Positions 18,900-58,125 of a DNA stretch of 64,000 bases are shown here, piece after piece. The number at the start of each line of letters is the position of its first letter. Within the stretch, counting starts at the first letter, position 1. The notes beneath the pieces are model-generated. The model saw only the letters and a list, made by a program, of their open reading frames with translations, was not told the DNA's origin and did not search any database. The stretch comes from Bacteroidales bacterium. GTDB lineage: Bacteria; Bacteroidota; Bacteroidia; Bacteroidales; VadinHA17. The stretch covers positions 4,308-68,307 of the forward strand of contig JAGNKY010000012.1 in assembly GCA_017999895.1 (NCBI GenBank), in the 5' to 3' direction. The translations under genes were made by a program, and so were the position numbers.

Positions 18900-19895
18900 A
18901 TGAGCAGACCAGTTACACTTTTTACCGGACAATGGGCCGATATTAAACTCGAAGAACTTTGCAAGAAAGCGAAGGAATTCGGATACGAAGGCCTGGAACT
19001 CGCATGCTGGGGCGACCATTTTGAAGTCAACAAAGCCGATGCTGCATACTGTAAAGCAAAGAAAGATTTGCTTGCAAAATACGGATTGAAACTATATGCT
19101 ATTTCGAACCATCTAGTCGGACAGGCAGTATGTGACCGCATTGATCAGAGGCATAAAAGTATCTTACCCGATTATATCTGGAGCGACGGTTATCCTGAAA
19201 GAATAAATCAGAGAGCTGCACAGGAAATGATGAAAACTGCTGAAGCTGCTGCCCGTCTTGGAGTTGAAGTAGTTAACGGTTTCACTGGAAGTCCGATATG
19301 GCATCTGTTATACTCATTTCCTGCAGTCTCACCATCGATGATTGATGATGGCTATAATGAATTTGCCTCAAAATGGATACCTATTCTTGACAGATTCAAA
19401 CAGCTTGGAATAAAATTTGCACTCGAAGCTCACCCTACGGAAGTTGCTTTCGATATAGCATCAGCTCAGCGAACCCTTAATGCAATTAATAATCATCCGG
19501 CTTTCGGTTTCAACTTCGATCCTTCACATTTCGGATATCAAGGCGTTGATTATGTAAAATTTATTTATACGTTTGCCGACAGGATTTTCCACGTACACAT
19601 GAAAGATGTTTACTGGTCAGATATACCTACTGATGCAGGAGTATTCGGAGGCCACACTGAATTTGGAGCCAAAGGAAGATACTGGGATTTCAGAAGTCTT
19701 GGAAGAGGTAAAATCAAATTCGAAGAAATTATAAGAGCTCTTAATAGAATAGGATATAACGGACCATTATCGGTTGAATGGGAGGATAGCGGCATGGATC
19801 GTGAGTTTGGTGCAAAAGAAGCAGCCGCTTTCGTAAAGAAAATAGATTTTCCACCCTCTGAGATGGCATTTGATGCTGCATTTGAAAAAAGATAA
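18900..19895 (+). CDS. Xylose-isomerase-like TIM-barrel protein (cytoplasmic)
   Basis: 331 aa with no signal. Features include [26 protein letters not shown] and LSVEWED. It is paired with the downstream Gfo/Idh/MocA gene. Confidence 0.75.
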
Positions 19896-20045
19896 TTTCT
19901 CAAAATATCCCGAAATGATTTCGCTTTTGGTTTTGCCTGGATAATGTTACCTAATTATAAAACAAATTATATAACTGTTTTAATGTTATTAATCGTTCGG
20001 GAAGTAAAAAGTTATTCAGCAAATAATAACTAAAAAGCATTTGTC

Positions 20046-21182
20046 ATGAAGAAAATAAAACTTGGGATGATTGGTGGCGGTATAGGAGCATTTATTGGAG
20101 ATGCCCATCGTCGTGCCGCCCGTATATCAAACGATTTCGAACTTATCGGAGGAGTTTTTGATGCCGACTATGAGAGGGCCAAAGAGTTTGCAGTAAAAGA
20201 AGGCATAGCCTCCGACAGATGTTACGAAAACGTTGATGTTATGATCAAGAGCGAGAAGGCAAGACCTGAGGGGGAAAGAATAGAGGCTGTTTCAATAGTA
20301 ACGCCAAACTACCTTCATTTTCCCTTTGCAAGGTTGCTTCTTAAAAACGGATTTCATGTAATGTGTGAAAAACCAATGACGATGACCGTTGAGGAAGCTA
20401 TTGAGTTGGAAAGGCTTGTGAAGGAAACCGGACTTACTTTTGCACTTACTCATACATATACCGGCTATCCTATGGTGAGGCAGATGCGTGAAATGATTAA
20501 ATCGGGTGCTTTAGGCAATATACAGAGAGTTGATGCTCAGTATTATCAAGGATGGGTGAATTCTATTATTCACGGTTCAGAAAGCCGGATTACTGGTGTA
20601 TGGAGATTTGACCCAGAGCAATCGGGCGTAAGTAGTTGTATGGGTGATATTGGTGTTCATGCATTTAACCTTATCGAATATACTACAGGGCTCGAGATAA
20701 AACAGGTACTTTCTGACTTAAATTCTATTAAGGAAGACTTTAAACTCGATCTTGACGGCACGGTACTTCTGCGATTCGGAAATCCAAAACTTAAAGGGGT
20801 AATTAGATCGTGTCAGGTAGCAACAGGAGAAGAAAATAACCTGACTATTGCCGTTTATGGTTCAAAAGCGAGTCTTAAATGGGGACAGGAGAACCCTAAC
20901 TACTTATTTCTTCTGAGCGACACAGAGCCTGTGAAAGTGCTTAAACCGGCTCATGGATATAATAGCGAATTCGCCGAAAAAAGCCATACAATGCCTTGCG
21001 GACATCCTGAAGGGATTTATGAAGCAATAGCCAATATTTACAAGGGCATGGCAAAATCAATAAGAGGAGAAAAATTTATCCCGGGAGAGTTTCCAACTGT
21101 TTACGACGGCGTTCGGGGAATGAAATTTATTCATGCAGTAGTAAACTCAAATAAAAAGGGTAATGTATGGACTGTTCTTTAA
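20046..21182 (+). CDS. Gfo/Idh/MocA-family oxidoreductase (cytoplasmic)
   Basis: 378 aa. Rossmann start KLGMIGGGIGAFIG and the EKP motif (VMCEKPMTM). Confidence 0.85.
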   Translation: MKKIKLGMIGGGIGAFIGDAHRRAARISNDFELIGGVFDADYERAKEFAVKEGIASDRCYENVDVMIKSEKARPEGERIEAVSIVTPNYLHFPFARLLLKNGFHVMCEKPMTMTVEEAIELERLVKETGLTFALTHTYTGYPMVRQMREMIKSGALGNIQRVDAQYYQGWVNSIIHGSESRITGVWRFDPEQSGVSSCMGDIGVHAFNLIEYTTGLEIKQVLSDLNSIKEDFKLDLDGTVLLRFGNPKLKGVIRSCQVATGEENNLTIAVYGSKASLKWGQENPNYLFLLSDTEPVKVLKPAHGYNSEFAEKSHTMPCGHPEGIYEAIANIYKGMAKSIRGEKFIPGEFPTVYDGVRGMKFIHAVVNSNKKGNVWTVL

Positions 21183-21231
21183 AGAATTTAATTTTCAAAA
21201 TAATTTAACATTTAATTTTAAATTGAATAAA

Positions 21232-22317
21232 ATGACGACAAACAGTAAAAATGGGAAAAGTTTATCCAGACGCAAGTTTCTGGGGACTACAGCTGTTGCA
21301 GCTTCATCTGTCTTTTTCGTTCCCTCATTATTCGGGCGTGAAGGATATACTGCACAACAGAAAATTTCAAAACCAAATTCAAAATTCGGAGGCGTTCAAA
21401 TAGGTGCTATAACCTATAGCTGGCGCGATATGCCTGGCGGTGTCGAGAACATAATCAAATATTGTCAGGAAGCCGGTGTAAGTTCAATTGAGCTAATGAG
21501 CAATGACCTTGAGATGTATCTCGGTGCACCTCAGAATCCTTTTATGAGACAACCCGGGCAACAGCCTGCTGCTCCTCCAAACCCTCCTGCTCCTCCGGCA
21601 AATATGCCTGCAGGTGCTCCACCGGCAGGAGGACAAAGGCCTCAACGTACCCCTGAACAGGAAGCCGCTATTACAAAGTATAATCAGGAGCTTAAAGCCT
21701 GGAGAACATCGTTGCCAATGTCTAAGGTGGAACAGGCTAAGAAGCTATTCAACAACGCAGGCATTAGCGTGCATATAGTCAAATTCTCACCTGCACGCTG
21801 GTCGGACGAAGAGATTGATTATGCCTTCAGAGTTGCAAAAGCTATGGGCGCAAAAGGTGTTACGGAGGAGATCGGCGAGGAAGCAGTGAAAAAATTGGCT
21901 CCGTTTGCCGAAAAAAACAAATCGTATGCAATCTTCCACAATCACATGCAGTTTGCAACACCCGGCTTTACATACGACAACTTCCTTAATGTATCACCTG
22001 CCGTAATGATGAATTTCGATGCCGGACATTTCTTCGGCTCAACAGGAATTCATCCTAATGAAATTATAAAGAAATATCACGACAGGATCGCAAGTATTCA
22101 CATTAAGGATAAAACCGGGCCAAAAAGCAATCCACCTAACACCAATACCGAATGGGGAAAAGGCGAAACACCTATTGCAGATGTGCTCCTCCTTCTGAAA
22201 AAAGAAAAATGGCCCATTAATGTCGATATTGAACTTGAATATCCAATACCTCAGGGTTCAGACTCAGTAAAAGAAGTAAAAAAGTGTATTGAATTCTGCA
22301 GAAAAATTCTCGCTTAA
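21232..22317 (+). CDS. Xylose-isomerase-like TIM-barrel protein, Tat signal, with an internal Pro/Ala-rich insert
   Basis: The track ORF starts at 21163. I prefer the ATG at 21232 (MTTNSKNGKSLSRRKFLGTTAVAASS), which gives a Tat signal and removes the overlap with the upstream gene. Barrel motifs include IHIKDK and DIELEY. The insert reads QPGQQPAAPPNPPAPPANMPAGAPPAGGQRPQ. Confidence 0.75.
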   Translation: MTTNSKNGKSLSRRKFLGTTAVAASSVFFVPSLFGREGYTAQQKISKPNSKFGGVQIGAITYSWRDMPGGVENIIKYCQEAGVSSIELMSNDLEMYLGAPQNPFMRQPGQQPAAPPNPPAPPANMPAGAPPAGGQRPQRTPEQEAAITKYNQELKAWRTSLPMSKVEQAKKLFNNAGISVHIVKFSPARWSDEEIDYAFRVAKAMGAKGVTEEIGEEAVKKLAPFAEKNKSYAIFHNHMQFATPGFTYDNFLNVSPAVMMNFDAGHFFGSTGIHPNEIIKKYHDRIASIHIKDKTGPKSNPPNTNTEWGKGETPIADVLLLLKKEKWPINVDIELEYPIPQGSDSVKEVKKCIEFCRKILA

Positions 22318-22421: not shown

Positions 22422-22688
22422 CTATTTCTTCTTTGTAAGTGAAATAACAATTCCACCGACAATAATTACCGCAGCAACTATAATAATAATTCTGCTTGCC
22501 GATCCTCCTTTATTACCATTACTTTCGGAAGTTTCGTCTTCAACCGCATAATAGTAAGTCGGCTTTATTATCGTATCCATATTAACAGAGTCTTTTTTCG
22601 GCTGCGGTTCTTGTTGTGCTCTTAAAAAAGATGCACTGCCAAATATAAGGATAGATACAAATACTAATTTCAATAATGTTCTTTTCAT
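22422..22688 (-). CDS. Small exported, C-terminally anchored hypothetical protein
   Basis: 88 aa. It has a signal peptide (LVFVSILIFGSASFLRAQ), an acidic/Ser-rich middle (EDETSESNGNKGGSAS), a C-terminal TM helix (IIIIVAAVIIVGGIVISL) and a KKK tail. Confidence 0.5.
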   Translation of the reverse strand: MKRTLLKLVFVSILIFGSASFLRAQQEPQPKKDSVNMDTIIKPTYYYAVEDETSESNGNKGGSASRIIIIVAAVIIVGGIVISLTKKK

Positions 22689-22734: not shown

Positions 22735-24804
22735 TTATTTAATCCTGCTTACAATTTCATCATATTTTCGCGCCATATCAGGATTTGAGGTTCGGTAAGA
22801 ATCAGCCAGTGCCATAAGTGCCGGCTTATATACAGGATTAATTTCCAGACATTGTCTTAATATTTTTCTTGCCCGCTCTACGTCCTTTCTGCTAATTACT
22901 TCAGCCAGTTTCACGTAAGCCTCGAAGTATTTCCGATTAAAATTAATTAGCTTTTCAAAATATCCCTCAGCTTTATCATATTCACTTCTGGAAACTGAAA
23001 TAATTCCTGCATACATCAATGCCGGTTCAAAGAACGGATTAATTTTCAAGCATTCATTAAGCACTGAATCAGCTTTAAGTGAATCTCTCAATCTGTTAAG
23101 CGCAACTGCAAAATTATAAAAAATCATTTCATCACAATGATTTTCTAAAATCGCCTTCTGGAAAAGTTTTACTGCATCATCGCATCTATTCTCCTGTAAA
23201 GCCCTAAATGCATTATAATCAGCTTTCGATTGTCTTTCAATTACCGTACACACTGGAGCCTCTCCGGCATAAACTACTTTAAGAGCACCGGTAGGAGGCC
23301 ATAATCCTTCTTTTAACCTGAAAGGCAATATATATCTGTTAGTTGAAATATAATAATCCCAGTTGTAAGTACTTCTTTCTTCATTTCTTATATATATATT
23401 TTTAACAAACGGCTGATTACGGAAATACCATTCAGCCGAAAAATTCGAAGCAACTACTATGCTGTCTTTAATTCCTTTACTTTCAAGATATTCAGTCAGC
23501 CATTCCGAAGCTTCGCGTTGTCCTATAAAATAATAATCTATTTCATAATTTCCATTTGCTCCTTTAACACCGCCAACAAGCTGATTAAAATATAAATATG
23601 CATACCTGTAATTAGCGGCCAGAAATTTTACAACATGAAATGAAGGAACAAAGAGTAAGAACACACAAAACCATTTAAGGTAGTTTTTAATATTTAATTT
23701 GAATATTGTAGAAATACCGACAGCCGAAAGAATTACAATTCCCGGATACAAAAACATAAATTGCCTCCACCCGCTGTAAATATTTGGTCTGGAGAATATA
23801 GTATAGAAAAGGGGAAAAATAATACTGAAAACAAGAATGAAATATGCCAGAAAATTTCCTTTTCGAAAAATCTTTGGTGAAAAGATTATAAACAAAAGTA
23901 AACCGGCAGTAATAGCAACAGGTATTGTAATCAATATATATTTGGGCATGTAGTACCATGGCATATAATCGGTCCACTCCACTCTGCCTTCAAATATTTC
24001 CCTGAAAGTGAGTGGAAATCTGCTCATAAAAAGATGGGCTTTGACAGGATTGATCACAGGGTTCTGTAATCCATAAGGCCATAAAACAACACTTAGAAAC
24101 CATCCTGCAGCTGAAATTATTGTAACAAGAAAAAATTTTCCAGCTAATGCATTGATGCTTTCCCCTTTACCATTAATATATTTTATAAGTTCATCTATGA
24201 AAAAGAAAAAGAAAAGATAACAAATAAGAATCATACCACTTGCTCTTATACTCATACAAAAAGCTATACTAAGAGCAAGCAATACACCACTTACAACTGG
24301 AATTTTCTTTTCAGACGATAAAAACTTTATGATAAAAAATACGCCTGATACATAGCCGAGTGCAAAGGGGATATCCTTAAGGTTATTCTGAGAATGGCCA
24401 AGAAATGTGGAAGATATTCCAAACAGCAGAATTACTATTATCCCTGCTTCATACCCTGAAAGCTTAACCGCAAAAAATACAGTTATAATAATTGTGAGCC
24501 ACCCGGCCATTGTGGCCATAATATGACGGAAACCGTAAATATCTTCCACACCTAACAGCTTAATAAGAAAAGTTGTAATATTGTCGTATGACTGTCCGTA
24601 ATATTTAAGGTGAGTGCCGGGAGTATGGAGACATGATCTGTCCTGACCATGTGTTACAAAATAGTTATAAACCGATACCGACTGGTTGTAATGAAGCACT
24701 TCGTCACAACTGACGCCTGCCTGTTTGCTTCCATAGAGCATAGCAACAAGAAGGGCAAAAGAAAGAACCGATAGAACAAGCTTATACCGTATTGTACTCA
24801 TCAT
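22735..24804 (-). CDS. GT-C fold membrane glycosyltransferase (ArnT/PMT-like, GT39/83-type) with C-terminal TPR repeats
   Basis: 689 aa. About 500 aa form a polytopic membrane region typical of polyprenyl-phosphate-sugar-dependent transferases. They are followed by TPR-like helical repeats (YNAFRALQENRCDDAVKLFQKAI..., YDKAEGYFEKLINFNRKYFEAYVKLAEV...). Its start overlaps the GT2 stop by 4 bp (ATGA). Confidence 0.65.
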   Translation of the reverse strand: MMSTIRYKLVLSVLSFALLVAMLYGSKQAGVSCDEVLHYNQSVSVYNYFVTHGQDRSCLHTPGTHLKYYGQSYDNITTFLIKLLGVEDIYGFRHIMATMAGWLTIIITVFFAVKLSGYEAGIIVILLFGISSTFLGHSQNNLKDIPFALGYVSGVFFIIKFLSSEKKIPVVSGVLLALSIAFCMSIRASGMILICYLFFFFFIDELIKYINGKGESINALAGKFFLVTIISAAGWFLSVVLWPYGLQNPVINPVKAHLFMSRFPLTFREIFEGRVEWTDYMPWYYMPKYILITIPVAITAGLLLFIIFSPKIFRKGNFLAYFILVFSIIFPLFYTIFSRPNIYSGWRQFMFLYPGIVILSAVGISTIFKLNIKNYLKWFCVFLLFVPSFHVVKFLAANYRYAYLYFNQLVGGVKGANGNYEIDYYFIGQREASEWLTEYLESKGIKDSIVVASNFSAEWYFRNQPFVKNIYIRNEERSTYNWDYYISTNRYILPFRLKEGLWPPTGALKVVYAGEAPVCTVIERQSKADYNAFRALQENRCDDAVKLFQKAILENHCDEMIFYNFAVALNRLRDSLKADSVLNECLKINPFFEPALMYAGIISVSRSEYDKAEGYFEKLINFNRKYFEAYVKLAEVISRKDVERARKILRQCLEINPVYKPALMALADSYRTSNPDMARKYDEIVSRIK

Positions 24805-25730
24805 GCATCGAATGTACCTCCATAAAAATTCTTTACGAAATACAGCGGCCTGTTTTGTGATTCCTTATAGCTTCGGTAAACGTATTCTCCAATTATTCCC
24901 AGGAAAATAAGTTGAACCGAACCGAGGAAATATATACTAAGAAGTGTTGATGACCATCCCGGCACAGCCAGATGTGCAGCTTGTGCCACGAGTATATATA
25001 TACCAGCAACCATAAAGACCACTACGCCTATTATTCCAAGAAAATAGCATACCTGTAGTGGAAATTTCGAGAATGAGAAAATTGCATCACCTGCCAGTAT
25101 TAAAAGTTTTTTCATACTCATTTTAGACTTGCCGGTAAATCGTTCATCCCTAACGTAATCTACAAATCCCTGTTTGAAACCAACATAAGAACGTATTCCC
25201 GGCAAATAACGCATATTTTCTCCGAATGAAATTATAGCATTTACTGCGCACCGCCTCATCATTGAAAAATTACCAGCATTCGCAATATTATTTAATCCGG
25301 CAATTTTCTTAAAAAGAAAATGAAATATGGACATAAAAATCTTTCTCTGCAGATTTTCTTTTCTGGCTTTTTTCCGGCCATTTATTACATCATATCCTTC
25401 CGAATAGATTTTTTTGTACATCTCGGGCAGCATTTCAGGGGGATCTTGAAGGTCGCCGTCCATCATTGCCACAATGTCACCGGATGCATGTTCGAGGCCA
25501 GCAGTATAGGCTATTTGATGGCCAAAGTTTCTCGATAAAGAAAGGATTTTAATTCGAGGGTTTTTATTCCGGAACGAAAGAAGCAAATCAAGACTTTTGT
25601 CGGAACTACCGTCGTCAACGAATATTATCTCATAATTATCTATAAATGATTCAATTGCAGAGACTGTTCTTCTTATGAGCTCTTCCAGAACATCTTCCTC
25701 ATTATATATTGGAATAACTACAGATAACAT
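24801..25730 (-). CDS. GT2 polyprenyl-phosphate glycosyltransferase (ArnC/GtrB/DPM1-like)
   Basis: 309 aa. Evidence: VVIPIYNEE, FVDDGSSD, MDGDLQDPP (DxD region) and two C-terminal TM helices. Confidence 0.85.
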   Translation of the reverse strand: MLSVVIPIYNEEDVLEELIRRTVSAIESFIDNYEIIFVDDGSSDKSLDLLLSFRNKNPRIKILSLSRNFGHQIAYTAGLEHASGDIVAMMDGDLQDPPEMLPEMYKKIYSEGYDVINGRKKARKENLQRKIFMSIFHFLFKKIAGLNNIANAGNFSMMRRCAVNAIISFGENMRYLPGIRSYVGFKQGFVDYVRDERFTGKSKMSMKKLLILAGDAIFSFSKFPLQVCYFLGIIGVVVFMVAGIYILVAQAAHLAVPGWSSTLLSIYFLGSVQLIFLGIIGEYVYRSYKESQNRPLYFVKNFYGGTFDA

Positions 25731-25747: not shown

Positions 25748-25839
25748 GTCTCTATGCACTTTGTGCCTTTTCTATTATGCTATTTGATATTTAATTAGTT
25801 AAGATAAGCGACACGAAGTTGACACGTAGTGGCATAGAG
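25748..25839. repeat. Intergenic inverted repeat (9-bp arms, 74-nt spacer)
   Basis: tctctatgc (25748..25756) and gcatagaga (25831..25839) are exact reverse complements. On the minus strand the distal arm is followed by a T-rich run. The element lies between the ThuA-like gene and the GT2 gene. Confidence 0.6.
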
Positions 25840-25848
25840 AAGTGATAA

Positions 25849-27057
25849 TTATTTAATTCCCAGTCGCTCAAGCGCAAAACTAACTTCATCTTTTAATTCA
25901 GGCACTGATTGCAGATTTCTAATAGCAGGAATACAATAATCGGTTCCCATCCAGCTGAGCTCACGCAAAACAAGTTTCTTTGCCTCAACTGTAGCCGAAC
26001 TGTTATTAAGAACTCCGGTCATCAATTTCTCTATTTCAAGGAGTTTTTCCTTATCGCCTGCCGCCCGTCTGATATATTCCTGAAGACCAGTATAGCATTT
26101 TGTGCTTTTCCCTATATCATAATTCACAAGGCCGGCAATATTCTCCTCAAGAGAAAGATATTTATAATCTTTTCTAATAGAAACGCCTGCAGCACTTGGG
26201 AAATCGGGAGGGATACTCTGTGTTACATTCCCTGATGCAGCCCATTCAGTGCCCCGTTGGAAAGTAGTAATAAAACCTGCACATTTCAAGGCAGGGCTTT
26301 CTTCTCCTTCCGGATACCCGAGTGTAGTATGAAACACTCTTCCTTTTCCGTAATTAATCGTCATCATAACAGGTTCGTGCCTTCCCGTTCCATTTCCGGA
26401 AGTGTCACAGAAAGCTGTGGCCAGAACCTCGAGATTCTTCGCCGGTCCCCTCATTCTTGCATAAAGAAGATCGCTGCCATGCATCCATCTTACTGGTAAA
26501 CCTTTCATTACAGGATGCTCCATATTACGTGTTCTTACCTCAAATTCTCTGGTTTTGCCGTACCATCCAGCCTGGCCTGGTGTAGAATCGATAACCATCC
26601 GGCCATCCTTGAAATAAATGTATGGCCCGTTTATTTCCGATCTCCCTCCCCATCCGGTCAAACCGCATATTTCTTCATACTCTTTCCAGCCGGGAAACGC
26701 TGATGAGGCTGAATGATACACAACTACTCCACCACCGTCAGAGACGTAATTAACAAAAGCCTTTTTTGTATCTTCTGACCATGAATCACCGGAATAATTA
26801 AGTACCACTACATTATATTTGCCAAAAGAAGGCTTAAAACTCTTCATATCACCTCCTTTTTCCGGTGATATTGCTATATCGACTCTGAAAAGTCCGGTTT
26901 GTTCAAGAATCTGTTTAATGACCGGGGTGCTAACTTTCCAGTTGGTCGTATTTTGTCCGGTTACAATTAGAGCTCTATATTGCATACTTTTTTGACATGC
27001 TATGGATATTAACATTACCATGCATGCCATTATTGCGAAAATTTTTGTTTTTTTCAT
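25849..27057 (-). CDS. ThuA-domain protein with C-terminal HEAT-like repeats, lipoprotein
   Basis: The track ORF starts at 27090. The ATG at 27057 gives MKKTKIFAIMACMVMLISIAC, a lipoprotein signal. ThuA-like features: ALIVTGQN, YVSDGGGVVVYHSA, HPVMKGLP, YGKGRVFHTTLGY. The tail is HEAT-like (VEAKKLVLRELSWMGTDYCIPAIRNLQSVPELKDEVSFALERL). Confidence 0.75.
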   Translation of the reverse strand: MKKTKIFAIMACMVMLISIACQKSMQYRALIVTGQNTTNWKVSTPVIKQILEQTGLFRVDIAISPEKGGDMKSFKPSFGKYNVVVLNYSGDSWSEDTKKAFVNYVSDGGGVVVYHSASSAFPGWKEYEEICGLTGWGGRSEINGPYIYFKDGRMVIDSTPGQAGWYGKTREFEVRTRNMEHPVMKGLPVRWMHGSDLLYARMRGPAKNLEVLATAFCDTSGNGTGRHEPVMMTINYGKGRVFHTTLGYPEGEESPALKCAGFITTFQRGTEWAASGNVTQSIPPDFPSAAGVSIRKDYKYLSLEENIAGLVNYDIGKSTKCYTGLQEYIRRAAGDKEKLLEIEKLMTGVLNNSSATVEAKKLVLRELSWMGTDYCIPAIRNLQSVPELKDEVSFALERLGIK

Positions 27058-27068
27058 TGATGTGTGTT

Positions 27069-28382
27069 TTAAACTGTCGGTAATGTCCATGGTTTTCTAA
27101 ATGGTCGGCTCATTAAACGACTTGCCGCCTGATTGTTAATTATTTCTTCTTTTTCTGGGTCCCATTTTATTTTTTGTCCGGTTGTCATTGCAATTTCTCC
27201 GAGCAAAGCTACAGATATTGCCCGGTAAGCAGGTTCAATCGGGCAAATAGTCTCTTTGCGTGAGCGAACGCAATCTATGAAATTCTGGTAATGATTAGTA
27301 CTTTTATAAAGATGTAACTCATCATCTTTTATCTTTTCTTCAAGTATTTTCGGGTTAGAAGCACTAATTTTGTTTCCGCGGTCTACATGTATCCATCCGA
27401 GGTCGCCATACCAGCATGTACCCATGCCCTTTGGAAGCCGTGAAGCATTGGCCACTCTCATTTCCATTCCATCAGCATATTTGCATAATATATCATATTC
27501 AACAGGAGCGTTGTATATTCCCTCAACCGGGTAAACTCCTTTTCCCTCTATTTCAACCGGGCCTGTGTGCTCCAGACCTGCTCCCCAGTTTGCAATATCA
27601 ACGTGATGTCCGGCCCAGTCGGTGAGTTGTCCACCGGAATAATCGAGTATCCATCTCCAATTCCAGTGACATACGCCGCGATATGGTACCCTCAGAGCAG
27701 GGCCGAGCCACATGTCCCAGTTTAGTTCTTTCGGAACTTCCTGTACTGGTGGAGTTCCTATCCCTCTTTCACCGTCGGGAAGCCCCACTTCAATATATTT
27801 TATCTTTCCTATTCTTCCATTTGCAACCAGTTCAGCCCCACGATGGAAATTCTCCTGCGACCTCTGCCAGCTTCCAGTCTGCCAGATAATTCCATTTTTC
27901 TTAACTGCACTAACAATAACCTTTCCTTCGTTTATTGTACGGCATATTGGTTTTTCGCCATATACATCCCATTTTTTCATGGCAGCTTCTGTATAGATAA
28001 CACCATGCCAATGATCGGGAAGAGCAATGAGTACTGCGTCAAGATTTTCCTTATCAAAGAACTCCCTGAAATCGCCATAAATCCTGCAGTCCCTGCTTCT
28101 ATTAACTTTATCAACCGTTTCCTTTGCTGCTGCAAGTCGTGAAGCATCAACATCACATAGAGCTACAAAACGCGTCTGATATTTTAGTCTCATAAAGTCT
28201 CTCATATCGCTCATGCCCTGTGAACCGGTTCCGATAACACCCATAACTATACGGTCGGAAGGAGGTATTTGGCCTCCACGACCTAAAGATGAAGCCGGCA
28301 TAATGTAAGGAATAACAAAAGTTCCGGCTATAGCAGAAGCAGATTTTTTTAAAAAATCCCTTCTTGATGTTTTCGTTTTCAT
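27069..28382 (-). CDS. Gfo/Idh/MocA-family oxidoreductase, Tat signal
   Basis: 437 aa. MKTKTSRRDFLKKSASAIAG is a Tat motif. Rossmann start MGVIGTGSQG; the family EKP motif appears as YGEKPICR. Confidence 0.85.
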   Translation of the reverse strand: MKTKTSRRDFLKKSASAIAGTFVIPYIMPASSLGRGGQIPPSDRIVMGVIGTGSQGMSDMRDFMRLKYQTRFVALCDVDASRLAAAKETVDKVNRSRDCRIYGDFREFFDKENLDAVLIALPDHWHGVIYTEAAMKKWDVYGEKPICRTINEGKVIVSAVKKNGIIWQTGSWQRSQENFHRGAELVANGRIGKIKYIEVGLPDGERGIGTPPVQEVPKELNWDMWLGPALRVPYRGVCHWNWRWILDYSGGQLTDWAGHHVDIANWGAGLEHTGPVEIEGKGVYPVEGIYNAPVEYDILCKYADGMEMRVANASRLPKGMGTCWYGDLGWIHVDRGNKISASNPKILEEKIKDDELHLYKSTNHYQNFIDCVRSRKETICPIEPAYRAISVALLGEIAMTTGQKIKWDPEKEEIINNQAASRLMSRPFRKPWTLPTV

Positions 28383-28415
28383 TTTATACTTTTTTAATTA
28401 TCAACAGATCAAATT

Positions 28416-29753
28416 TCATATTTGAACAGGCAATCCGGGAATAGGGACTTCAAATTTCATATCAACCGGCCCGAATTCTATTTTTGAGGGGCCCAGGTTC
28501 ATGTCTGATTTAAGTATTTCATCCCATGTGATCATTCTGCCGGTATATGCAGCAGTTCTTCCCATTATTGCAGTCAGTGTAGAGATTGCAGTTTGTTCCG
28601 CTTCGTTAACGTAATTACCAGTACGTATAGCCCATACCAGATGCATGTGTTCCTGTACATAGGCAGGTATTTTCAATGAATTTGTTGGATTATTATTTTC
28701 ATCTCTGGGATATTCAAATTTCCATTTAATATTTCCATCCAGATCCCAGATAATATTCTGACAGTTAGTATATCCTTCGGTTCCAACGACTATCTCACCG
28801 GTGCCGTTTGCACAACCGTCTATTTGTCTGCACATGCTATGGGAACTCAGACCGTTTCCGTAATTAAAATCAATACTGAAAAAATCATACTGGTCGCCTG
28901 TAACACGTCGGTGTCTTCCTCCGTAACCAATTGCACTTTCAGGATGTTTTCCCGTGAACCAGTTTACCACATCAATATTATGTACATGGGTATCAAGTAT
29001 ATGATCGCCTGAAAGCCAGCAAAAATTATTCCAGTTACGTATCATATATTCCATGTCGTTCCATCCAGGCTCTCTTAGTCGGAACCATACATGATCCTGG
29101 TTCCAGTAAGCTTTTGCGGATGTAATACGTCCGATAGCACCGGCGGCCACCTGTTTGTATGTTTCGATATAATCTTCCTGATGGCGTCTTTGTGTACCCG
29201 TAACCACATTGATACCTATTGCTTCGGCTTTTTTCGCTGTCGTAAGTATTGACCGTATTCCTGTAGAATCCACTGCAACAGGTTTTTCCATGAAGACATG
29301 TTTGGTTCTGGTCACTGCTTCAAGGAAATGTTCGGGTCGGAATTTAGGAGGTGTAGCAAGTAGTACGACGTCAATCTCGTCGATAGCCATGAGTTTCTTA
29401 TATGCATCGAATCCCACGAAACAATTTTCGGCGGGAATAGGCAATCCGAAAGAAGCAAAGCGTTCTCTGCATGCATCAATTTTGTCCTGAAATACATCGG
29501 CCAGTGCAATAATTTCAAGGTCTGGACCTGCACTGATAAAATTGATTGCAGCGCCTGTACCGCGGCCTCCAGCCCCTACAAGGCCTGCTCTGAGTTTTTT
29601 GCCCGGAGGTGCTCCATTTAGTATAGGGGGCAGTCCAGCGGGTTCTGCTATCTTTTTTCTTCCGCATCCGGTCATTATTGCGCCTGCACCAGCCAGGCCA
29701 ATACTTGCCGCAGCAGCTTTTTTGATGAATTTTCTTCTATCAAAATTTTTCAT
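28416..29753 (-). CDS. Gfo/Idh/MocA-family oxidoreductase, Tat signal (possibly lipidated)
   Basis: 445 aa. MKNFDRRKFIKKAAAASIGLAGAGAIMTGC combines an RR motif with a Cys after the h-region. Rossmann start AGLVGAGGRG and EKP motif FMEKPVAV. Confidence 0.85.
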   Translation of the reverse strand: MKNFDRRKFIKKAAAASIGLAGAGAIMTGCGRKKIAEPAGLPPILNGAPPGKKLRAGLVGAGGRGTGAAINFISAGPDLEIIALADVFQDKIDACRERFASFGLPIPAENCFVGFDAYKKLMAIDEIDVVLLATPPKFRPEHFLEAVTRTKHVFMEKPVAVDSTGIRSILTTAKKAEAIGINVVTGTQRRHQEDYIETYKQVAAGAIGRITSAKAYWNQDHVWFRLREPGWNDMEYMIRNWNNFCWLSGDHILDTHVHNIDVVNWFTGKHPESAIGYGGRHRRVTGDQYDFFSIDFNYGNGLSSHSMCRQIDGCANGTGEIVVGTEGYTNCQNIIWDLDGNIKWKFEYPRDENNNPTNSLKIPAYVQEHMHLVWAIRTGNYVNEAEQTAISTLTAIMGRTAAYTGRMITWDEILKSDMNLGPSKIEFGPVDMKFEVPIPGLPVQI

Positions 29754-29759
29754 AAGTTT

Positions 29760-31295
29760 CTATTTCTTTGATAACACCAAGCTATCGGGTTCACATACCA
29801 CTCTAAATCCCACATCGATACAATCGGAATACCACCAGATGCTCTTAGGCATTTGCGGGTCAGTCATTAACCATATATCGGTTTTTGTAAAGTCACGCGC
29901 AGCGCTTCTCACATCCTTTGCGTCACTCTTGAACGAACCTCCTCTTATCACTCTCTCTTTTCCCTCCAAAGGGCCCCGTGGATTTATTGAAACAGTATCA
30001 TTTTTATAAGCATCGGCAGAATAATAGTCAGAGCAGAACTCTGCAACGTTTCCCGACATATTTTTTATTCCAAACGGATTGGGCTTGACTGCCGAAGGCT
30101 CAGCCGTTCTGTAATTGCTATTTTCCTTATATATAACGTATGAAGCAATTACGGCAGTATCAGGCTTGAATATCTTTTTCACAAATCCTTCTGAAGAAAA
30201 CTTTTTTGGATTGCCTTCGAAGAAATATGGAGTTGAAGAGCCGCCTCTACATGCATATTCCCATTCTGCTTCTGTTGGCAGACGGTAATATTTACCTGTT
30301 TTTTGCGAAAGCCATTTGCAGTAAACATTCGCGGCATACCAGGTCATGGTTATTGCCGGACGTGAGCCTTTGCCCCAGCCCTGGTCGGGAGCTCCCCATG
30401 GAGGGGTTGGCCCGGTGACAGCATCAACTTTTTTTGTCGTGACTATCTGTCCTTCGGTTCTCCCCTGAGAAGAAGTGGCCTGGAAAAAGGCAAGATATTC
30501 ATCCCATGTCACCTCTACTTCACCTATCCAGAAAGGAGATACTGTAACTTCCCTTACCGGGCCTTCATCATCTTCGCGCAGAGGTTCATCGTCAGGGCTT
30601 CCCATATTATATTTACCGCCGGGAACCGCTATCATATTAAACGAAACTTCTGTTCCGGGGATATGCTCGGTGAAATTTTCAAATTTTTCTACTTTGGCCG
30701 GCTCAGTGTAAACAATCGCAGTTTCAGTTTTAATGACTCCAAAGGTTGTGTCTTTCGCATGTTTAATGTTTTTATCAAAATGGCCTACATCAATATGACA
30801 GTTAATGCACTGCAAAGATTCCTTGTTTAAGGTATAAAACAGATGTGCATTGCCTCCGTCTTCGGATAATGTTACAGGAAACAGGTTAGTATGACATTCA
30901 AGACATGATTCTTCATAAACAATTTTCTTTGCATTTTCTGGAAGTTTTTTTGCCTCCCAGTTAAAATCGGCACTATCCTTAAACCAGTATCCATAAATAT
31001 CCTTTATTCCATGCTTAACCTTGGTTAAAAGATATCCCTTGCCTTTTGGGGCAAGATGACATTCAATACAATGTGTCTTTACGCCCGAACTATTGTTGTA
31101 ATGAGTCGAGAGTTTCCACGATTGTTCAGCATGGGGGTGAACATGGCATGACATACAATATTCATCGGTCGAAGTATAAGAAATTGCCTTATCTCCAAGT
31201 ATTATTAATATTATGCAAGCAATAACTCCTGCAAAAAAAATCCAGACAAATGACTTCTTTTTTTTTGATTGTCTGGTTATTTTGATTTTATTCAT
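29760..31295 (-). CDS. Fusion protein: membrane-anchored NapC/NirT-type tetrahaem cytochrome c + FGE-sulfatase (SUMF1)-fold domain
   Basis: 511 aa. It has an N-terminal TM helix (FVWIFFAGVIACIILIILG). Four CxxCH motifs occur at residues 47, 76, 131 and 163 (CMSCH, CIECH, CLECH, CINCH) with NapC/NirT-like spacing. The C-terminal ~290 aa carry FGE-fold hallmarks (MIAVPGGKYNMGS, YRLPTEAEWEYACRGG, NMSGNVAEFCSDYY, RVIRGGSF). Confidence 0.8.
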   Translation of the reverse strand: MNKIKITRQSKKKKSFVWIFFAGVIACIILIILGDKAISYTSTDEYCMSCHVHPHAEQSWKLSTHYNNSSGVKTHCIECHLAPKGKGYLLTKVKHGIKDIYGYWFKDSADFNWEAKKLPENAKKIVYEESCLECHTNLFPVTLSEDGGNAHLFYTLNKESLQCINCHIDVGHFDKNIKHAKDTTFGVIKTETAIVYTEPAKVEKFENFTEHIPGTEVSFNMIAVPGGKYNMGSPDDEPLREDDEGPVREVTVSPFWIGEVEVTWDEYLAFFQATSSQGRTEGQIVTTKKVDAVTGPTPPWGAPDQGWGKGSRPAITMTWYAANVYCKWLSQKTGKYYRLPTEAEWEYACRGGSSTPYFFEGNPKKFSSEGFVKKIFKPDTAVIASYVIYKENSNYRTAEPSAVKPNPFGIKNMSGNVAEFCSDYYSADAYKNDTVSINPRGPLEGKERVIRGGSFKSDAKDVRSAARDFTKTDIWLMTDPQMPKSIWWYSDCIDVGFRVVCEPDSLVLSKK

Positions 31296-31349: not shown

Positions 31350-32288
31350 TCAATGAACTATTTCTTTTTTAAAATAATCTATCGTCATTTTGAGTCCTTC
31401 CTGTAGAGTAACTTCAGGGCTCCAGTTAAGGACAGCTTTCGCTAGTGATATATCGGGTTGTCGTTGTCGGGGATCATCTTCCGGAAGAGGACAGAATTTT
31501 ATCTTTGACTTTGAACCTGTCATTTTTATGATTATCTGTGCCAGGTCAATTATTTTTATTTCAGCAGGGTTTCCTATATTTACCGGTCCCGTAAAAGATT
31601 CGGGTGATTCCATAGTTAAAAGCAATCCTCTTATCAAATCATCAAAATATTGAAAACTTCTTGTCTGGGAACCATCACCAAAAATTGTAATTTCATTCCC
31701 TTTCAGGGCCTGAACGATAAAGTTTGAAATCACTCTTCCGTCGTCGGCCCTCATCTTTGGCCCATAAGTATTGAATATTCTGACAATTTTGATATTAACT
31801 TTTTCCTGTCGGTGGTAGTTCATAAAGATAGTTTCTGCACATCTTTTCGCCTCATTGTAGCATGAGCGGGCTCCAAGCATGTTTACATAACCTCTGTATC
31901 CTTCATGCTGTGGATGAATCTGAGGATCACCATAGATTTCGCTTGTTGATGCCTGTAGAATCTTTGCACCTGTTTTTATCGCAAGTTCAAGAGTATTTAT
32001 TGCACCAAGTACTATTGTTTTAATAGTCTTTATACCGTCTTTTTGATAAAATATGGGTGAAGCAGGACAGGCAAGATTATATATTTCATCGCAACTGATA
32101 TGTATTTTTTCTGTTACATCCTGCTCAATAACTCTGAAATATCTGTTATTTCTTAGATGTCGGATATTTTTTTCCCTCCCGCTAAAAAAATTATCGAGAC
32201 ATATAACGTAGTGCCCCGATTCAAGAAGTTTTTCACAAAGGTGTGACCCAATAAAACCGGCCCCGCCTGTGACCAGAATTTTTTTCAT
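31350..32288 (-). CDS. UDP-glucuronate decarboxylase (UDP-xylose synthase), SDR family
   Basis: 312 aa. Evidence: [77 protein letters not shown]. This closely matches the UXS pattern as I remember it. Confidence 0.8.
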
Positions 32289-32432: not shown

Positions 32433-33836
32433 TTACTGTAATGATGATATTGTTTTCCAGACATCATCCGGATTCTTCAAGGCGTTATCGGGCATCTTCC
32501 CGTTCTTTCCGAATACCAGAAGTTTATCATATTTTTCGATAGTCACCTTCGATTCATCAATTTTGCCGCTCTTATCTTTAACAGCATTTATGTTAAGTCC
32601 GAGATGCTTTGCCATAAAATCGTACATTGCAATCCGTTTCGAATAGCCATAATCGTGCTTTTCATTTGCAAGGTGCACATTCTCGACATTATCCTGCTTT
32701 CCATATAAGGAATATATTTTCCGGAGATATGGAAACTCTATTTCAGGCACATGTTTTGTCCAGTCGTCGCCGTCGGAAATAACCAGCATCGGGCGGGGTG
32801 ATGCCATCGCAGCAATTTCGGCATTATAGGTTAAAAGTTCCGTGCATGATTGTAGCGGCATTCCACTTTCGCACGGACAGCCTCCATAATAGTATGAAGA
32901 AACCATAACAACAGGCACACTTACTTTTATCCTGTCGTCGAGGGCAGTTGCAAGCATTGCCTGTGTTGCTCCTCCCGAGGCGCCTGTGATCCCAATTCTT
33001 GTGCCATCCACAAAAGGCAAAGTAGTAAAATAATCTATCGCCCGTATAGAATTAAGAGTTTGCATTGTATGTGCCAGCCCTGTTCTGTGTAGTTCGCTCG
33101 CAAACTGTAGTCTCGATTCACCCCATGCAAACATGTCGTAACTAAATACTATGGCACCCATCCTTGCAAGAGTGGCGCAACGGTATTGCATATCGGGCCG
33201 ATAACGGCCATACAGATTTGTATCGGGGTTTGAAAAATGTCCGTAAGGGCATAAAATAAGGGGAAACGGACCTTTACCTTTTGAAGGTTTATAAACAGAG
33301 CCGCACAGATAAACCCCCGGAATTGTTTCAATTGCAATGTTTTCCACGCTATAGCCTTCATATTTTCTTGCAGGTGTGACAATGGGATTGAAAGCCGTTT
33401 TCCGTGGAAAAGGATTTAGTTTCAACTGTGTGAGAAAACATTCACGCAGCTGAGCTTTTCTCGATTCCCAGATTTCGGGCGTAGTACAATAGGCAAGAAG
33501 TTGTTCAAGATGTTTCCTACCTTCTTCCACCGGACGCTGATAATAATTAAATTTGCTTATCTGGTAAGTATTCTCACCGGTTTTTTCATATACCAGATCA
33601 AGTGGGTAAAGAATATTAGTAAGGGTCGGCTCAATATCTACCCGGTAACGCCATGTAGGATAGTTTACAAACATATCTTTTACAAGGCTTTCACTATACT
33701 GTAGTTTTATATGGTATCGGCTTTCGATATCAATTAAAACTTCTTTCAAAGGTTTCTTATAAACCTCTTCCGGCAGTTGTGATCTGACAAAAGTGGCCGA
33801 AAACACTAATAAAAAGAGAAGAAATAGTTTTTTCAT
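32433..33836 (-). CDS. Secreted alpha/beta-hydrolase (acetyl-xylan-esterase / dienelactone-hydrolase-like)
   Basis: 467 aa with a signal peptide. A nucleophile-elbow-like motif RIGITGASGGAT (GxSxG) is present. Family-level call only. Confidence 0.55.
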   Translation of the reverse strand: MKKLFLLFLLVFSATFVRSQLPEEVYKKPLKEVLIDIESRYHIKLQYSESLVKDMFVNYPTWRYRVDIEPTLTNILYPLDLVYEKTGENTYQISKFNYYQRPVEEGRKHLEQLLAYCTTPEIWESRKAQLRECFLTQLKLNPFPRKTAFNPIVTPARKYEGYSVENIAIETIPGVYLCGSVYKPSKGKGPFPLILCPYGHFSNPDTNLYGRYRPDMQYRCATLARMGAIVFSYDMFAWGESRLQFASELHRTGLAHTMQTLNSIRAIDYFTTLPFVDGTRIGITGASGGATQAMLATALDDRIKVSVPVVMVSSYYYGGCPCESGMPLQSCTELLTYNAEIAAMASPRPMLVISDGDDWTKHVPEIEFPYLRKIYSLYGKQDNVENVHLANEKHDYGYSKRIAMYDFMAKHLGLNINAVKDKSGKIDESKVTIEKYDKLLVFGKNGKMPDNALKNPDDVWKTISSLQ

Positions 33837-34000
33837 TATATTAATTTTTTATATCTCTCTAAAGGCTCTCTGTAGAGCTTTGTGTCTGGTGGTGCAAAAA
33901 AAAAAACTCAAAAAACAGTGAGAAACCGCAAAGATATACAGAGATGCTTTAATAATTATTCAATTTTTCATAATATGAAACAGGAATGTAAGATAACAAA

Positions 34001-35395: not shown

Positions 35396-35490
35396 AGTTT
35401 TACAAAGAAAGAACACCGCTGACTTAAGACAGCGGTGCTCTTTCTTTTCATAATTAATGATCAACCATACTACAAATCAATCCTACAATT

Positions 35491-36468: not shown

Positions 36469-36488
36469 ATCTGTTTCTTTTAAAATTT

Positions 36489-38354: not shown

Positions 38355-38367
38355 AGTTTTTAGGTAT

Positions 38368-41526: not shown

Positions 41527-41549
41527 AGCCGTAAGTATTAATAATTATT

Positions 41550-43388: not shown

Positions 43389-43408
43389 ATTTATTAATCA
43401 GTTTAAAG

Positions 43409-49453: not shown

Positions 49454-49481
49454 GGAAAAAGGAAAAAGGAAAAAGGAAAAA
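49454..49481. repeat. Tandem heptamer (GGAAAAA)x4
   Basis: Four perfect units read directly, starting right after the ilvD stop. They lie 40 nt upstream of ilvB. Confidence 0.85.
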
Positions 49482-49521
49482 GTCATAACTATAAAAAAGA
49501 AACCAGAAAAAAAAACATTTT

Positions 49522-51818: not shown

Positions 51819-51928
51819 CTGATAAAGAATCTCCGGCATTCAATTTCCCATGTTAAAATAAACTTTTTTAATCTATCGGGGTGTTTTGAATCAGACCGGG
51901 TAATGTAAAACCAATAAAACTAATAAAT

Positions 51929-52978: not shown

Positions 52979-52990
52979 ATATAAAAGATA

Positions 52991-54484: not shown

Positions 54485-54497
54485 ACCATTTTCAATT

Positions 54498-55895: not shown

Positions 55896-55915
55896 CAATT
55901 TTTAATCAGAAAACA

Positions 55916-58071: not shown

Positions 58072-58125
58072 TAATAAGGAAAAAATCAATTTCTTAAATA
58101 ATAAATTATCAATAAAAATAAATTC

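Follow-up and report, generated by a model that had tools for sequence, protein, structure and literature searches.

The operon and its extent

This study concerns an operon in a 64,000-nucleotide stretch of a Bacteroidales genome of the VadinHA17 lineage (assembly GCA_017999895.1, contig JAGNKY010000012.1, positions 4,308 to 68,307 of the forward strand), hereafter the window, to which all coordinates refer unless a numbered locus of a relative (L001 and so on) is named. Four of its genes lie on the minus strand. The first, cytFGE (29760..31295, 511 aa), is by the open reading frame (ORF) list and Pfam a membrane-anchored fusion of a NapC/NirT-type tetrahaem cytochrome with a domain of the formylglycine-generating enzyme (FGE) fold, and the second, GFO-A (28416..29753, 445 aa), encodes a Gfo/Idh/MocA oxidoreductase with a twin-arginine (Tat) export signal. 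They are followed by GFO-B (27069..28382, 437 aa), another Tat-signal Gfo/Idh/MocA oxidoreductase, this one with a C-terminal PF19051 domain, and by the gene of a 413-aa ThuA-family lipoprotein (25849..27090), which likely starts at 27057 (MKKTKIF). The spacers measure 6 bp and 33 bp, the last junction being a 22-bp overlap, or an 11-bp gap if ThuA starts at 27057; in this respect the ORF list bears out the preliminary description of the locus, which had noted the four co-directional genes and their spacings.

That description had closed the unit with an inverted repeat at 25748..25839. Conserved gene order, however, runs past the repeat and takes in three more minus-strand genes: GT2 (24801..25730), for a PgfS/ArnC-like polyprenyl-phosphate glycosyltransferase co-conserved with the operon; TPRmem (22735..24804), for a polytopic membrane protein with C-terminal TPR repeats, whose start overlaps the GT2 stop by 4 bp; and small88 (22422..22688), conserved after TPRmem, whose 88-aa product begins with a signal-like segment and has a hydrophobic anchor at its C-terminus. 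The repeat was considered as a terminator or boundary and rejected: its perfect 9-nt arms (25749-25757 and 25832-25840) stand 74 nt apart with no T-run, and it is a chance-level 9-mer. The four-gene operon first proposed is right as to its genes and their conserved order but too short, GT2, TPRmem and the small protein always following in a unit of at least seven genes.

Promoter scans were less telling. The sigma-70 scan of the window returned 20 sites against 19.9 expected and is uninformative. The Bacteroidetes -7 box occurs at chance density; one copy (TATATTTG) lies 36 nt before the start of the SDR gene that precedes cytFGE, another inside the 3' end of the ThuA gene, and none between the four genes, a placement that gives weak support to a single transcript of the four.

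A tetrahaem cytochrome fused to an FGE-like domain

Profile searches and a motif scan agree in describing the cytFGE product as it was first proposed to be, a protein anchored by a transmembrane (TM) helix, with four CxxCH motifs, in which a NapC/NirT cytochrome is fused to an FGE-fold domain; matches were obtained for all the families named at the outset for this operon (Cytochrom_NNT, FGE-sulfatase, GFO_IDH_MocA in both dehydrogenases, and ThuA). Cytochrom_NNT (PF03264) is matched with 92.9 bits (E 2.5e-26, cutoff 24.1) and the NrfH profile TIGR03153 with 68 bits (E 8e-19); because the latter score falls under the equivalog cutoff of 134, cytFGE is a member of the NapC/NirT family but not an NrfH orthologue. 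The single N-terminal TM helix (residues 16-34, 31194..31250, Kyte-Doolittle maximum 2.94) comes after a Lys/Arg-rich cytoplasmic N-terminus, and the CxxCH motifs, at residues 47, 76, 131 and 163 (31143-31157, 31056-31070, 30891-30905 and 30795-30809, together spanning 30795..31157 on the minus strand), are invariant in our family alignment, A1. So are His53, His65, His151 and His172, which are candidate distal haem ligands. The segment K92-x3-G96-x2-D99 (30999..31022, minus strand) aligns with the K..G..D.Y segment of NrfH (2j7a_C), which we take, from the NrfH structure, to hold the quinol-site residues Lys82 and Asp89. K92, G96, D99 and Y101 all align with NrfH, the first three being invariant in A1 and Y101 not. 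About 7,900 homologues of cytFGE were found, the best 120 of which all contain both domains at 67-100% identity, with the four haem motifs present in 119 of the 120.

The FGE-fold domain occupies residues 220-502 (29790..30638, minus strand) and matches FGE-sulfatase (PF03781) at 153.2 bits (E 1.3e-44). It reads GGSFKS at the place of GGSFLC in the T. curvata FGE, the first catalytic cysteine being replaced, and the segment after this contains no family-wide conserved cysteine in A1. Because the catalytic cysteine pair is missing, the domain, to judge by its sequence, is not an FGE. Foldseek comparison of its AlphaFold2 model (mean pLDDT 81.7) gave PvdO (5hha, E 3e-19) as the top match, with FGEs next at about E 1e-18. 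The Pfam match and the database names 'SUMF1/EgtB/PvdO' and 'formylglycine-generating enzyme' would suit a working FGE that matures sulfatases with power from the cytochrome. We hold this to be so improbable that it hardly enters the argument: genuine FGE function was rejected on the missing cysteines, no sulfatase gene was seen in the operon or among its conserved neighbours, and the closest structure is that of a protein, PvdO, that is itself not an FGE.

What sets the domain apart from canonical FGEs is a signature, DPQMPKSIWWYSD (residues 479-491, 29823..29861, minus strand), which they lack and in which D479, P480, Q481, P483, K484, W487, W488 and D491 are invariant in A1. Its consensus, DPQxP[KQ]SxW[WY], marks a subfamily of FGE-like proteins that pairs with GFO-A and with apbE. 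The N-terminal extension of the FGE-like domain varies within the subfamily, and may be the tetrahaem NapC/NirT domain, cytochrome c or a signal peptide alone. Full-length NapC/NirT fusions were found in Bacteroidia, in one KSB1 genome and in one Acidobacteriota genome; in fusions from Verrucomicrobiota and Bryobacteraceae the extension has one cytochrome c motif or two (PSCyt1, Cytochrom_C or CBB3-type). The subfamily also appears in giant proteins, 1,000-4,400 aa long, in which as many as 22 stretches match, as well as fused to protein kinase, DUF1566 or FG-GAP domains. A full-fusion search of a representative library was swamped by such giant multi-FGE proteins, and about five clusters of full-length fusions (at 50% identity) were seen there.

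A flavinylation-type heptad and the apbE gene

ApbE recognizes the motif D-x-x-[S/T]-G-A-[S/T] and places FMN on its last residue (PMC12052999, PMC8238504); changes of Gly to Ala or of Ala to Val in it merely lowered flavinylation, by about half (PMC12052999). A heptad of this type, D291-A-V-T-G-P-T297, is found in the FGE-fold domain (30405..30425, minus strand), with Thr297 as the proposed site of FMN attachment. Asp291 and Thr297 are invariant in A1, where PPWG comes after a family heptad of D-A-[IV]-[ST]-G-[AP]-T; DAISGAT is the form in 85 of the 120 closest homologues, and [ST]GAT is present in 92. Stand-alone members of the subfamily follow D-[AG]-[VI]-[TSA]-R-P-[TS] and keep the final Thr/Ser in the 110 of 118 profile hits that fit the pattern. 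Across the subfamily the heptad is D-x-x-[ST]-x-[AP]-[TS], its final Thr/Ser invariant across phyla. In the AlphaFold2 model it sits on a long surface loop (residues 278-304) of low confidence, which is compatible with an accessible modification site. The FGE-fold domain probably carries a flavin covalently attached to Thr297, and what had at first been left as an unexplained appendage of the cytochrome would then become the link between an NAD(P)H donor and one-electron haems.

The company that the subfamily keeps points the same way. In a scan of one genome per species, 20 of 56 subfamily loci, drawn from five phyla, have apbE beside or close to the FGE-like gene, mostly adjacent or one gene away, as against none of the 24 other FGE-like loci that the scan yielded (Fisher p = 4e-4). 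A rough chance model with three apbE genes per 5-Mb genome puts the probability of such co-localization at about 1e-26. The apbE assignments are secure in the six loci checked (Pfam ApbE, E 1e-65 to 1e-77), and the only other ORF with a canonical flavinylation motif in these modules is an apbE ORF itself, in L048. In four loci (L019, L022, L037 and L054) apbE and the FGE-like gene occur together with no GFO-A detected. Such pairs without GFO-A point to the FGE-like protein as the ApbE target. GFO-A was also considered for this role and is thought unlikely to play it, having no canonical motif and being undetected beside those pairs. An adjacent apbE accompanies one of the 13 NapC/NirT fusions and 19 of the 43 other loci (p = 0.02); stand-alone forms with a TRPT heptad tend to have an apbE of their own, and the fusions, with SGAT-like heptads, mostly do not. 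Such a pattern would be expected if the fusions relied on the general ApbE of the cell. Our literature search, whose coverage is incomplete, found no paper that ties ApbE to FGE-like or Gfo proteins.

In two of the loci without a GFO partner, both from Flavobacteriaceae (L022 7893-10574 and L054 7881-10493), a YceI-like gene lies between the FGE-like gene and apbE. YceI proteins are polyisoprenoid or quinone binders, and these loci may represent a different output for the same carrier.

A core shared by five phyla

The association of these genes had been put forward from a single genome, and it proved to be conserved in uncultured Bacteroidales. The order cytFGE–GFO-A–(GFO-B–ThuA)–GT2–TPRmem–small88 recurs in L001-L004, L085, L087 and one further contig, and contigs with 70%-identical homologues keep the same order and continue into a convergent pair of a cytoplasmic GFO and a TIM barrel. 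An independent test was made with TPRmem as bait against metagenome contigs. It returned 80 loci at 46-86% identity, among which 31, a number that may count related populations repeatedly, had at least 6.5 kb of upstream flank; in all 31 a cytNNT-FGE fusion and GFO-A lie upstream of TPRmem. GFO-B and ThuA are both present in 27 of them, ThuA alone in one and neither in three, and the shorter contigs are consistent with this. GFO-B/ThuA are absent from L005, L008, L107, L110 and L137, and genomes of Prolixibacteraceae and Draconibacterium have cytFGE–GFO-A–GT2–TPRmem directly.

Stand-alone proteins with the signature extend much further, through Flavobacteriia, Sphingobacteriia, Cytophagia, Chitinophagia and Saprospiria to Planctomycetota, Verrucomicrobiota, Acidobacteriota and Gemmatimonadota. 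A GFO-A-type Tat oxidoreductase is encoded directly downstream of the FGE-like gene in most subfamily loci, the two being adjacent in Bacteroidota, Planctomycetota, Verrucomicrobiota, Acidobacteriota and Gemmatimonadota. A Tat-signal TIM barrel often comes next, also in the more distant Bacteroidales fusions L007, L009, L011 and L014. From these gene orders, FGE-like plus GFO-A appears as the ancient core and GFO-B–ThuA as a separable accessory pair; the operon of the window can thus be read as a composite of the core, an inserted GFO-B/ThuA pair and a trio of GT2, TPRmem and small protein that is specific to Bacteroidia.

A proposed path from sugar to menaquinone

The best explanation of the operon core, as far as comparative sequence analysis reaches, would be a respiratory-chain-linked periplasmic dehydrogenase placed in a conserved envelope operon. 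We favour a dehydrogenase that feeds the respiratory chain because the gene association is conserved, the NrfH-type positions are kept, and relatives of the FGE-like domain are fused to cytochrome c. Quinone-linked periplasmic oxidation was already the idea of the preliminary description, and with the conserved K/G/D/Y positions and the haem fusions it stands as the best-supported reading, but the composition of the operon, its boundaries and the key mechanistic element differ from what was supposed. The operon would probably be a widespread variant of the cytochrome-linked periplasmic dehydrogenases with a new kind of flavinylated carrier.

The model that we prefer, and to which we give about an even chance, runs from substrate through GFO-bound NAD(P)H, covalent FMN and four haems to menaquinone. 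GFO-A, exported by the Tat system folded and loaded with NAD(P), would oxidize its substrate, be it a sugar, a glycoside or a cyclitol. From the bound NAD(P)H a hydride would then go to the tethered FMN, which, attached by ApbE to Thr297 on its flexible loop, would act as the second substrate of a ping-pong cycle. The flavin could split the two-electron hydride into single electrons for the four c-type haems of the NapC/NirT domain, the membrane-proximal one of which would pass them to menaquinone at an NrfH-like site; in other phyla the carrier would hand them to cytochrome c instead. GFO-B and ThuA would be a second, separable dehydrogenase pair inserted in this lineage, which may share the outlet. 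The domains, the export signals and haem motifs, the missing FGE cysteines, the conserved heptad, the nearby apbE, the haem fusions and the gene order can be seen in the sequences themselves; flavin attachment, the direction of electron flow, the quinone acceptor and the substrate are inferred from them. Somewhat short of even are the chances that we give to the broader proposition that the FGE-fold subfamily consists of previously unrecognized ApbE-flavinylated carriers that turn Tat-exported GFOs into respiratory dehydrogenases in at least five phyla, and that the NapC/NirT fusion of anaerobic Bacteroidia runs 'backwards' to menaquinone and so feeds anaerobic respiration.

Several observations weigh against these proposals. 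The heptad of the window, DAVTGPT, is the rarest variant, found in one of the 120 closest homologues; it matches six of the seven canonical positions and has Pro in place of Ala. The loop with Thr297 is modelled at pLDDT <50, and no flavin pocket is visible. Part of the heptad (D-A-V…P-W) is present in the genuine T. curvata FGE, only the Thr/Ser positions being specific to the subfamily. No apbE lies in the 64-kb window, and in the sole NapC/NirT-fused genome locus with an adjacent apbE, L013, that gene is split over two ORFs. GFO-B–ThuA pairs occur with no cytochrome nearby, in a GH106/GH43/GH2 cluster and beside glycogen phosphorylase (L084, L086), so that GFO-B–ThuA may need no external acceptor. 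The invariable linkage to GT2 and TPRmem is not explained by a purely catabolic model. Finally, NapC/NirT proteins usually oxidize quinol rather than reduce quinone.

This last point suggests that electrons might run the other way, from menaquinol through the haems to the FGE-like domain for the reduction of periplasmic keto-sugars or of some other acceptor. Most characterized NapC/NirT/NrfH proteins are quinol dehydrogenases, and cytFGE keeps the NrfH-like residues. Yet reduction of NAD(P)+ from menaquinol is thermodynamically uphill, and the FGE-like domain is elsewhere fused to cytochrome c modules, which usually drain periplasmic dehydrogenases; we regard the reverse flow as very unlikely.

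Tat-exported Gfo/Idh/MocA proteins are among the commonest unexplained genes of Bacteroidota and the PVC group and are now known to start a non-hydrolytic breakdown of glycosides. The periplasm has no free nicotinamide cofactors, and how the tightly bound NAD(P)H of these enzymes is re-oxidized there is an acknowledged gap, raised for BT2158 (PMC8121099). A flavin carrier would supply the missing step between a two-electron nicotinamide donor and one-electron haems, and an FGE-fold partner that carries flavin and is wired to haems would, if true, be a concrete answer to the regeneration of the periplasmic GFO cofactor. It would also add a new fold to the substrates of ApbE, call for the re-annotation of thousands of proteins named 'formylglycine-generating enzyme' or 'SUMF1/EgtB/PvdO nonheme iron enzyme', and mean that certain anaerobic Bacteroidales gain energy by oxidizing sugars outside the cytoplasm.

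The two dehydrogenases and the ThuA lipoprotein

GFO-A and GFO-B match PF01408 at 55.8 and 48.8 bits, as well as PF22725 and PF19051, and have the Rossmann motifs VGAGGRG and IGTGSQG; they are 21% identical to each other. The twin-arginine signals ascribed to both are confirmed by their motifs, DRRKFIKK and SRRDFLKK, and TIGR01409 passes its cutoff for GFO-B. In GFO-A the Tat motif (29718-29741) is followed by a possible lipobox, IMTGC (29664-29678), and by GxGxxG (29556-29579, all minus strand). The nearest solved relatives of GFO-A are inositol dehydrogenases and the C-glycoside 3-oxidase DgpA, and GFO-B is similar in its N-terminal half to the BT_2158 family and to 8tdf/8tdh (E 1e-28). Neither reaches the curated score of the BT_2158 glycoside 3-dehydrogenase profile (NF058561): the cutoff is 750 bits, GFO-B scores 155 with a match to positions 1-264 of the 487 in the profile, and GFO-A scores 41.8. 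A Tat-signal, xylose-isomerase-like TIM barrel follows GFO-A in L007, L009, L011, L014, L028, L035, L047 and L049 and stands beside the module in L017. Because of these partners and of the similarities of the two enzymes, both of them far below the family cutoffs, the substrate class pointed to would be sugars, glycosides or cyclitols; we infer no more firmly the 'glycoside' substrate and the '3-keto' product of the preliminary description.

The same enzymes could also be redox-neutral, acting as NAD-dependent glycosidases or in an oxidation–elimination–reduction scheme of the GH4/GH109/BT2156-2160 type and regenerating their bound cofactor themselves, with cytFGE as a rescue or priming device for enzyme stuck in the NAD(P)H form, or as an unrelated gene. 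The likeness of GFO-B to the BT_2158 family and 8tdf/8tdh, TIM-barrel partners typical of elimination pathways, and the GFO-B–ThuA pairs with no cytochrome nearby in L084 (the glycoside-hydrolase cluster) and L086 all fit such a role, and for BT2158 Liu et al. propose that the reduction of a second sugar restores the cofactor (PMC8121099). We nevertheless consider it unlikely: GFO-A is almost never found apart from the FGE-like gene in five phyla, and a dedicated apbE together with repeated haem fusions would be a large outlay for occasional repair.

The fourth gene product was described as a ThuA-like protein with a lipoprotein signal, and it is one: PF06283 matches at 84.8 bits (E 1.3e-23, cutoff 33.4), the lipobox is LISIAC, and 4e5v is similar at E 8e-96 with 50% identity and a TM-score of 0.93. 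GFO-B, of the PF19051 type, is adjacent to ThuA in every ThuA context sampled. About 100 residues at the C-terminus of ThuA (25864-26151, minus strand) form a tail that AlphaFold2 models as six helices (residues 303-398, pLDDT >90) and that is conserved in some 120 homologues (55-71% identity, coverage 94-100% in all but one). This tail had been called HEAT-like. The confident six-helix model makes a helical repeat plausible, but HEAT itself is not shown, and the assignment was set aside, the tail having no Pfam or NCBIfam match and Foldseek matching the ThuA domain only. In a Planctomycetaceae locus (L026 4723-7734) a 1003-aa protein with a C-terminal CxxCH precedes the FGE-like/GFO-A pair and resembles, by a look at the sequence with no profile search, the PVC 'membrane-bound dehydrogenase / HEAT / cytochrome c' proteins. 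If this resemblance holds, helical repeats beside a haem domain may recur, as the ThuA tail may hint.

The GT2–TPRmem–small88 trio

The three genes that complete the operon give a second lead, through its fixed link to a polyprenyl-phosphate glycosyltransferase and TPRmem. GT2 matches PF00535, NF047588 (E 2e-70) and the ArnC-type PRK10714 (E 2e-51), and follows ThuA or GFO-A in all loci examined. TPRmem is about 690 aa long and has an invariant D34-E35 just past its first hydrophobic segment, other invariant residues being H38, the YYGQS motif and NLKDIPFA. No Pfam or NCBIfam profile matches its 535-residue N-terminal membrane part, and those PDB matches that were listed are confined to the TPR region; by its sequence it appears to be an unclassified membrane protein family that occurs only inside operons of the cytFGE type. 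The D-E pair may be a GT-C-like motif, and the first segment may face the periplasm. The product of small88 has a middle rich in Ser, Thr, Gly and Asn and a C-terminal anchor followed by KKK, matches no family, and could serve the putative glycosylation pair as substrate or as subunit. The trio suggests either that a component of the system is glycosylated or that the operon modifies a lipid-linked or envelope sugar.

The second of these options can be developed into a biosynthetic scheme with the logic of mycobacterial DprE1/DprE2, in which GT2 would make a polyprenyl-phosphate sugar, GFO-A would oxidize it in the periplasm with electrons leaving through cytFGE to menaquinone, GFO-B/ThuA would re-reduce it with inversion, and TPRmem, as a putative GT-C enzyme, would transfer it to an envelope acceptor. 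GT2–TPRmem–small88 occur with cytFGE–GFO-A in 31/31 loci and also in Prolixibacteraceae and Draconibacterium, GT2 is PgfS/ArnC-like, a UXS/ArnA-like SDR gene lies upstream in several relatives, and the invariant D-E of TPRmem would suit its putative GT-C role. The proposed reductase is gone, however, from the five loci that lack GFO-B/ThuA (L005, L008, L107, L110 and L137), and no known glycosyltransferase family is matched by TPRmem in its membrane part. The FGE-like/GFO-A/apbE core, when found outside Bacteroidia, has no GT2 but Tat TIM barrels instead. Because the core thus occurs without the GT2/TPRmem trio in all other phyla, the biosynthetic scheme ranks below the catabolic one, and we think it decidedly unlikely.

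Comparison with known systems

We know of no characterized system like the cytFGE–GFO operon. Missing FGE cysteines, an invariant Thr/Ser in the heptad, co-localization with apbE and several haem-fusion architectures are, to judge from the sequences compared, what is new here.

The cytochrome half is most like NrfH, NapC, CymA and cM552, with one N-terminal TM helix, four CxxCH motifs, profile matches and K..G..D.Y aligned with NrfH. It differs from NrfH in having CxxCHxH instead of CxxCHxM at haem 1 and in being fused to an FGE-fold domain, and from NrfH, NapC and CymA in lacking a nitrite, nitrate or TMAO reductase partner and in the proposed reduction of quinone rather than oxidation of quinol. 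A precedent for this direction is cM552 of Nitrosomonas, which runs toward quinone reduction.

With the known ApbE substrates (NqrC, RnfG, NosR, PceC, PplA, DUF2271 and DUF3570) the FGE-like proteins share a D-x-x-[ST]-G-A-[ST]-type heptad, a periplasmic location, apbE alongside and association at the cytochrome or quinone level (PMC8238504, PMC11334425, PMC12052999). Unlike those, the carrier here would have the FGE (C-type-lectin-like) fold in place of FMN_bind or a related domain, and in most FGE-like members Arg-Pro replaces the Gly-Ala of the canonical motif. Neither FGE-like nor Gfo proteins come up in the main text of the three papers; the eLife supplement has a single Gfo entry, for a neighbouring gene that is unrelated.

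PvdO, of pyoverdine maturation in Pseudomonas, is likewise a periplasmic FGE-fold protein (NCBIfam name dihydropyoverdine dehydrogenase) without the catalytic cysteines of FGE. Its identity to the domain of cytFGE is only about 25%, and to our knowledge it has no haem fusion, GFO partner or apbE link.

Rhizobial ThuA/ThuB follow an ABC importer and are taken as cytoplasmic. ThuA and GFO-B recall the ThuA/ThuB of Sinorhizobium and Agrobacterium in that a ThuA-family gene stands beside a Gfo/Idh/MocA gene, always together; in the window both proteins have export signals (Tat and lipoprotein), ThuA has the extra helical tail, and the similarity is at the level of Pfam families only. PMC8121099 cites ThuAB for the formation of 3-keto-disaccharides. 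No paper linking ThuA/ThuB to cytochromes was found in a literature search of incomplete coverage.

BT2156–BT2160 of Bacteroides thetaiotaomicron and the related 3-keto-glycoside cleavage pathways (DgpA/DgpBC, O-glycoside β-eliminase) combine a Tat GFO with xylose-isomerase-like TIM barrels and a cytoplasmic GFO (PMC8121099, PMC10628242). Related genes flank the operon, and the N-terminal half of GFO-B matches NF058561 and 8tdf/8tdh, but the scores are far under the cutoffs (155 vs 750 bits), and descriptions of those systems include no cytochrome, FGE-like protein or ThuA; their cofactor is thought to be regenerated by sugar reduction. Periplasmic sugar oxidation with electrons going to a c-type cytochrome and then to the respiratory chain is known from the glucoside 3-dehydrogenases LacABC and G3DH and from other cytochrome-c-linked enzymes (PMC8121099), whereas the catalyst here is an NAD(P)-bound Gfo/Idh/MocA enzyme, with an FGE-fold carrier as the separate seat of the proposed flavin. 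The same source cites the glucose-fructose oxidoreductase (GFOR) of Zymomonas mobilis as a Gfo/Idh/MocA enzyme exported by the Tat system with tightly bound NADP (PMC8121099). GFOR recycles that cofactor by reducing fructose in a ping-pong cycle; here a protein-bound flavin is proposed as the second substrate. In LacABC and G3DH the enzyme is an FAD-dependent flavoprotein of the GMC type, and the cytochrome c is a subunit of its own.

Genomic neighbourhood

The operon had been described as lying at the end of a polysaccharide utilization locus (PUL). This is true of the window, where a PUL of about 14 kb (32433-46648) holds two SusC/SusD pairs (SusC/SusD genes at 36489-46648), a BT_3987-like protein, a BNR_4 protein and an esterase, but not of its relatives, in which the upstream flank is made up of ilv/leu genes (L001), GAPDH (L003), msrAB (L085) or polA. 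In L001 (1-9944) the ilvD/ilvB/ilvC/leuA/leuC cluster directly abuts the SDR–cytFGE operon, and in the window the ilv/leu cluster lies about 15 kb away, past the SusC/SusD genes, at 47.6-59 kb (47627-59196). Because of this displacement the PUL is best taken as a lineage-specific block insertion between neighbours that are adjacent in L001, and its link to the operon as incidental; membership of the operon in the PUL was rejected on synteny, there being no conserved SusC/SusD linkage.

The SDR gene (31350..32288, minus strand), of the UXS / ArnA C-domain type (UDP-sugar decarboxylase/epimerase-like), lies 54 bp upstream of cytFGE. It is present in L001, L089, L090, L093 and L099 and absent in L003 and L085.

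Some genes with a bearing on respiration were met near modules of relatives and are recorded as anecdotal: a ResB/CcsA cytochrome c biogenesis fusion gene after the module in L011 (11854-14046), cydAB at 3-6 kb from it in L007 (1931-4623), and, about 2.7 kb past the operon in L005 (15745-17420), a fumarate-reductase-type flavoprotein with a small membrane protein before it.

The window holds six Gfo/Idh/MocA genes in total (among them those with starts listed at 7812, 12741, 20046, 27069 and 28416) and five xylose-isomerase-like TIM barrels. One of these GFOs (7812-9173, minus strand) has a Tat signal, a PF19051 C-domain and a BT_2158-like N-terminal half, is 29% identical to GFO-B, and stands beside a xylose-isomerase-like TIM barrel (6912-7802, minus strand). 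On the plus strand a convergent cluster (18900..22317) faces the end of the operon and comprises a xylose-isomerase-like TIM barrel (18900-19895), a cytoplasmic GFO (20046-21182) and a Tat-signal TIM barrel (21163-22317). The first two are conserved past small88 in most relatives. The third, which shares its first 20 bp with the end of the GFO gene, has homologues in some related loci only and contains a Pro/Ala/Gly-rich low-complexity insert of about 45 residues (…QQPAAPPNPPAPPANMPAGAPPAGGQRPQ…).

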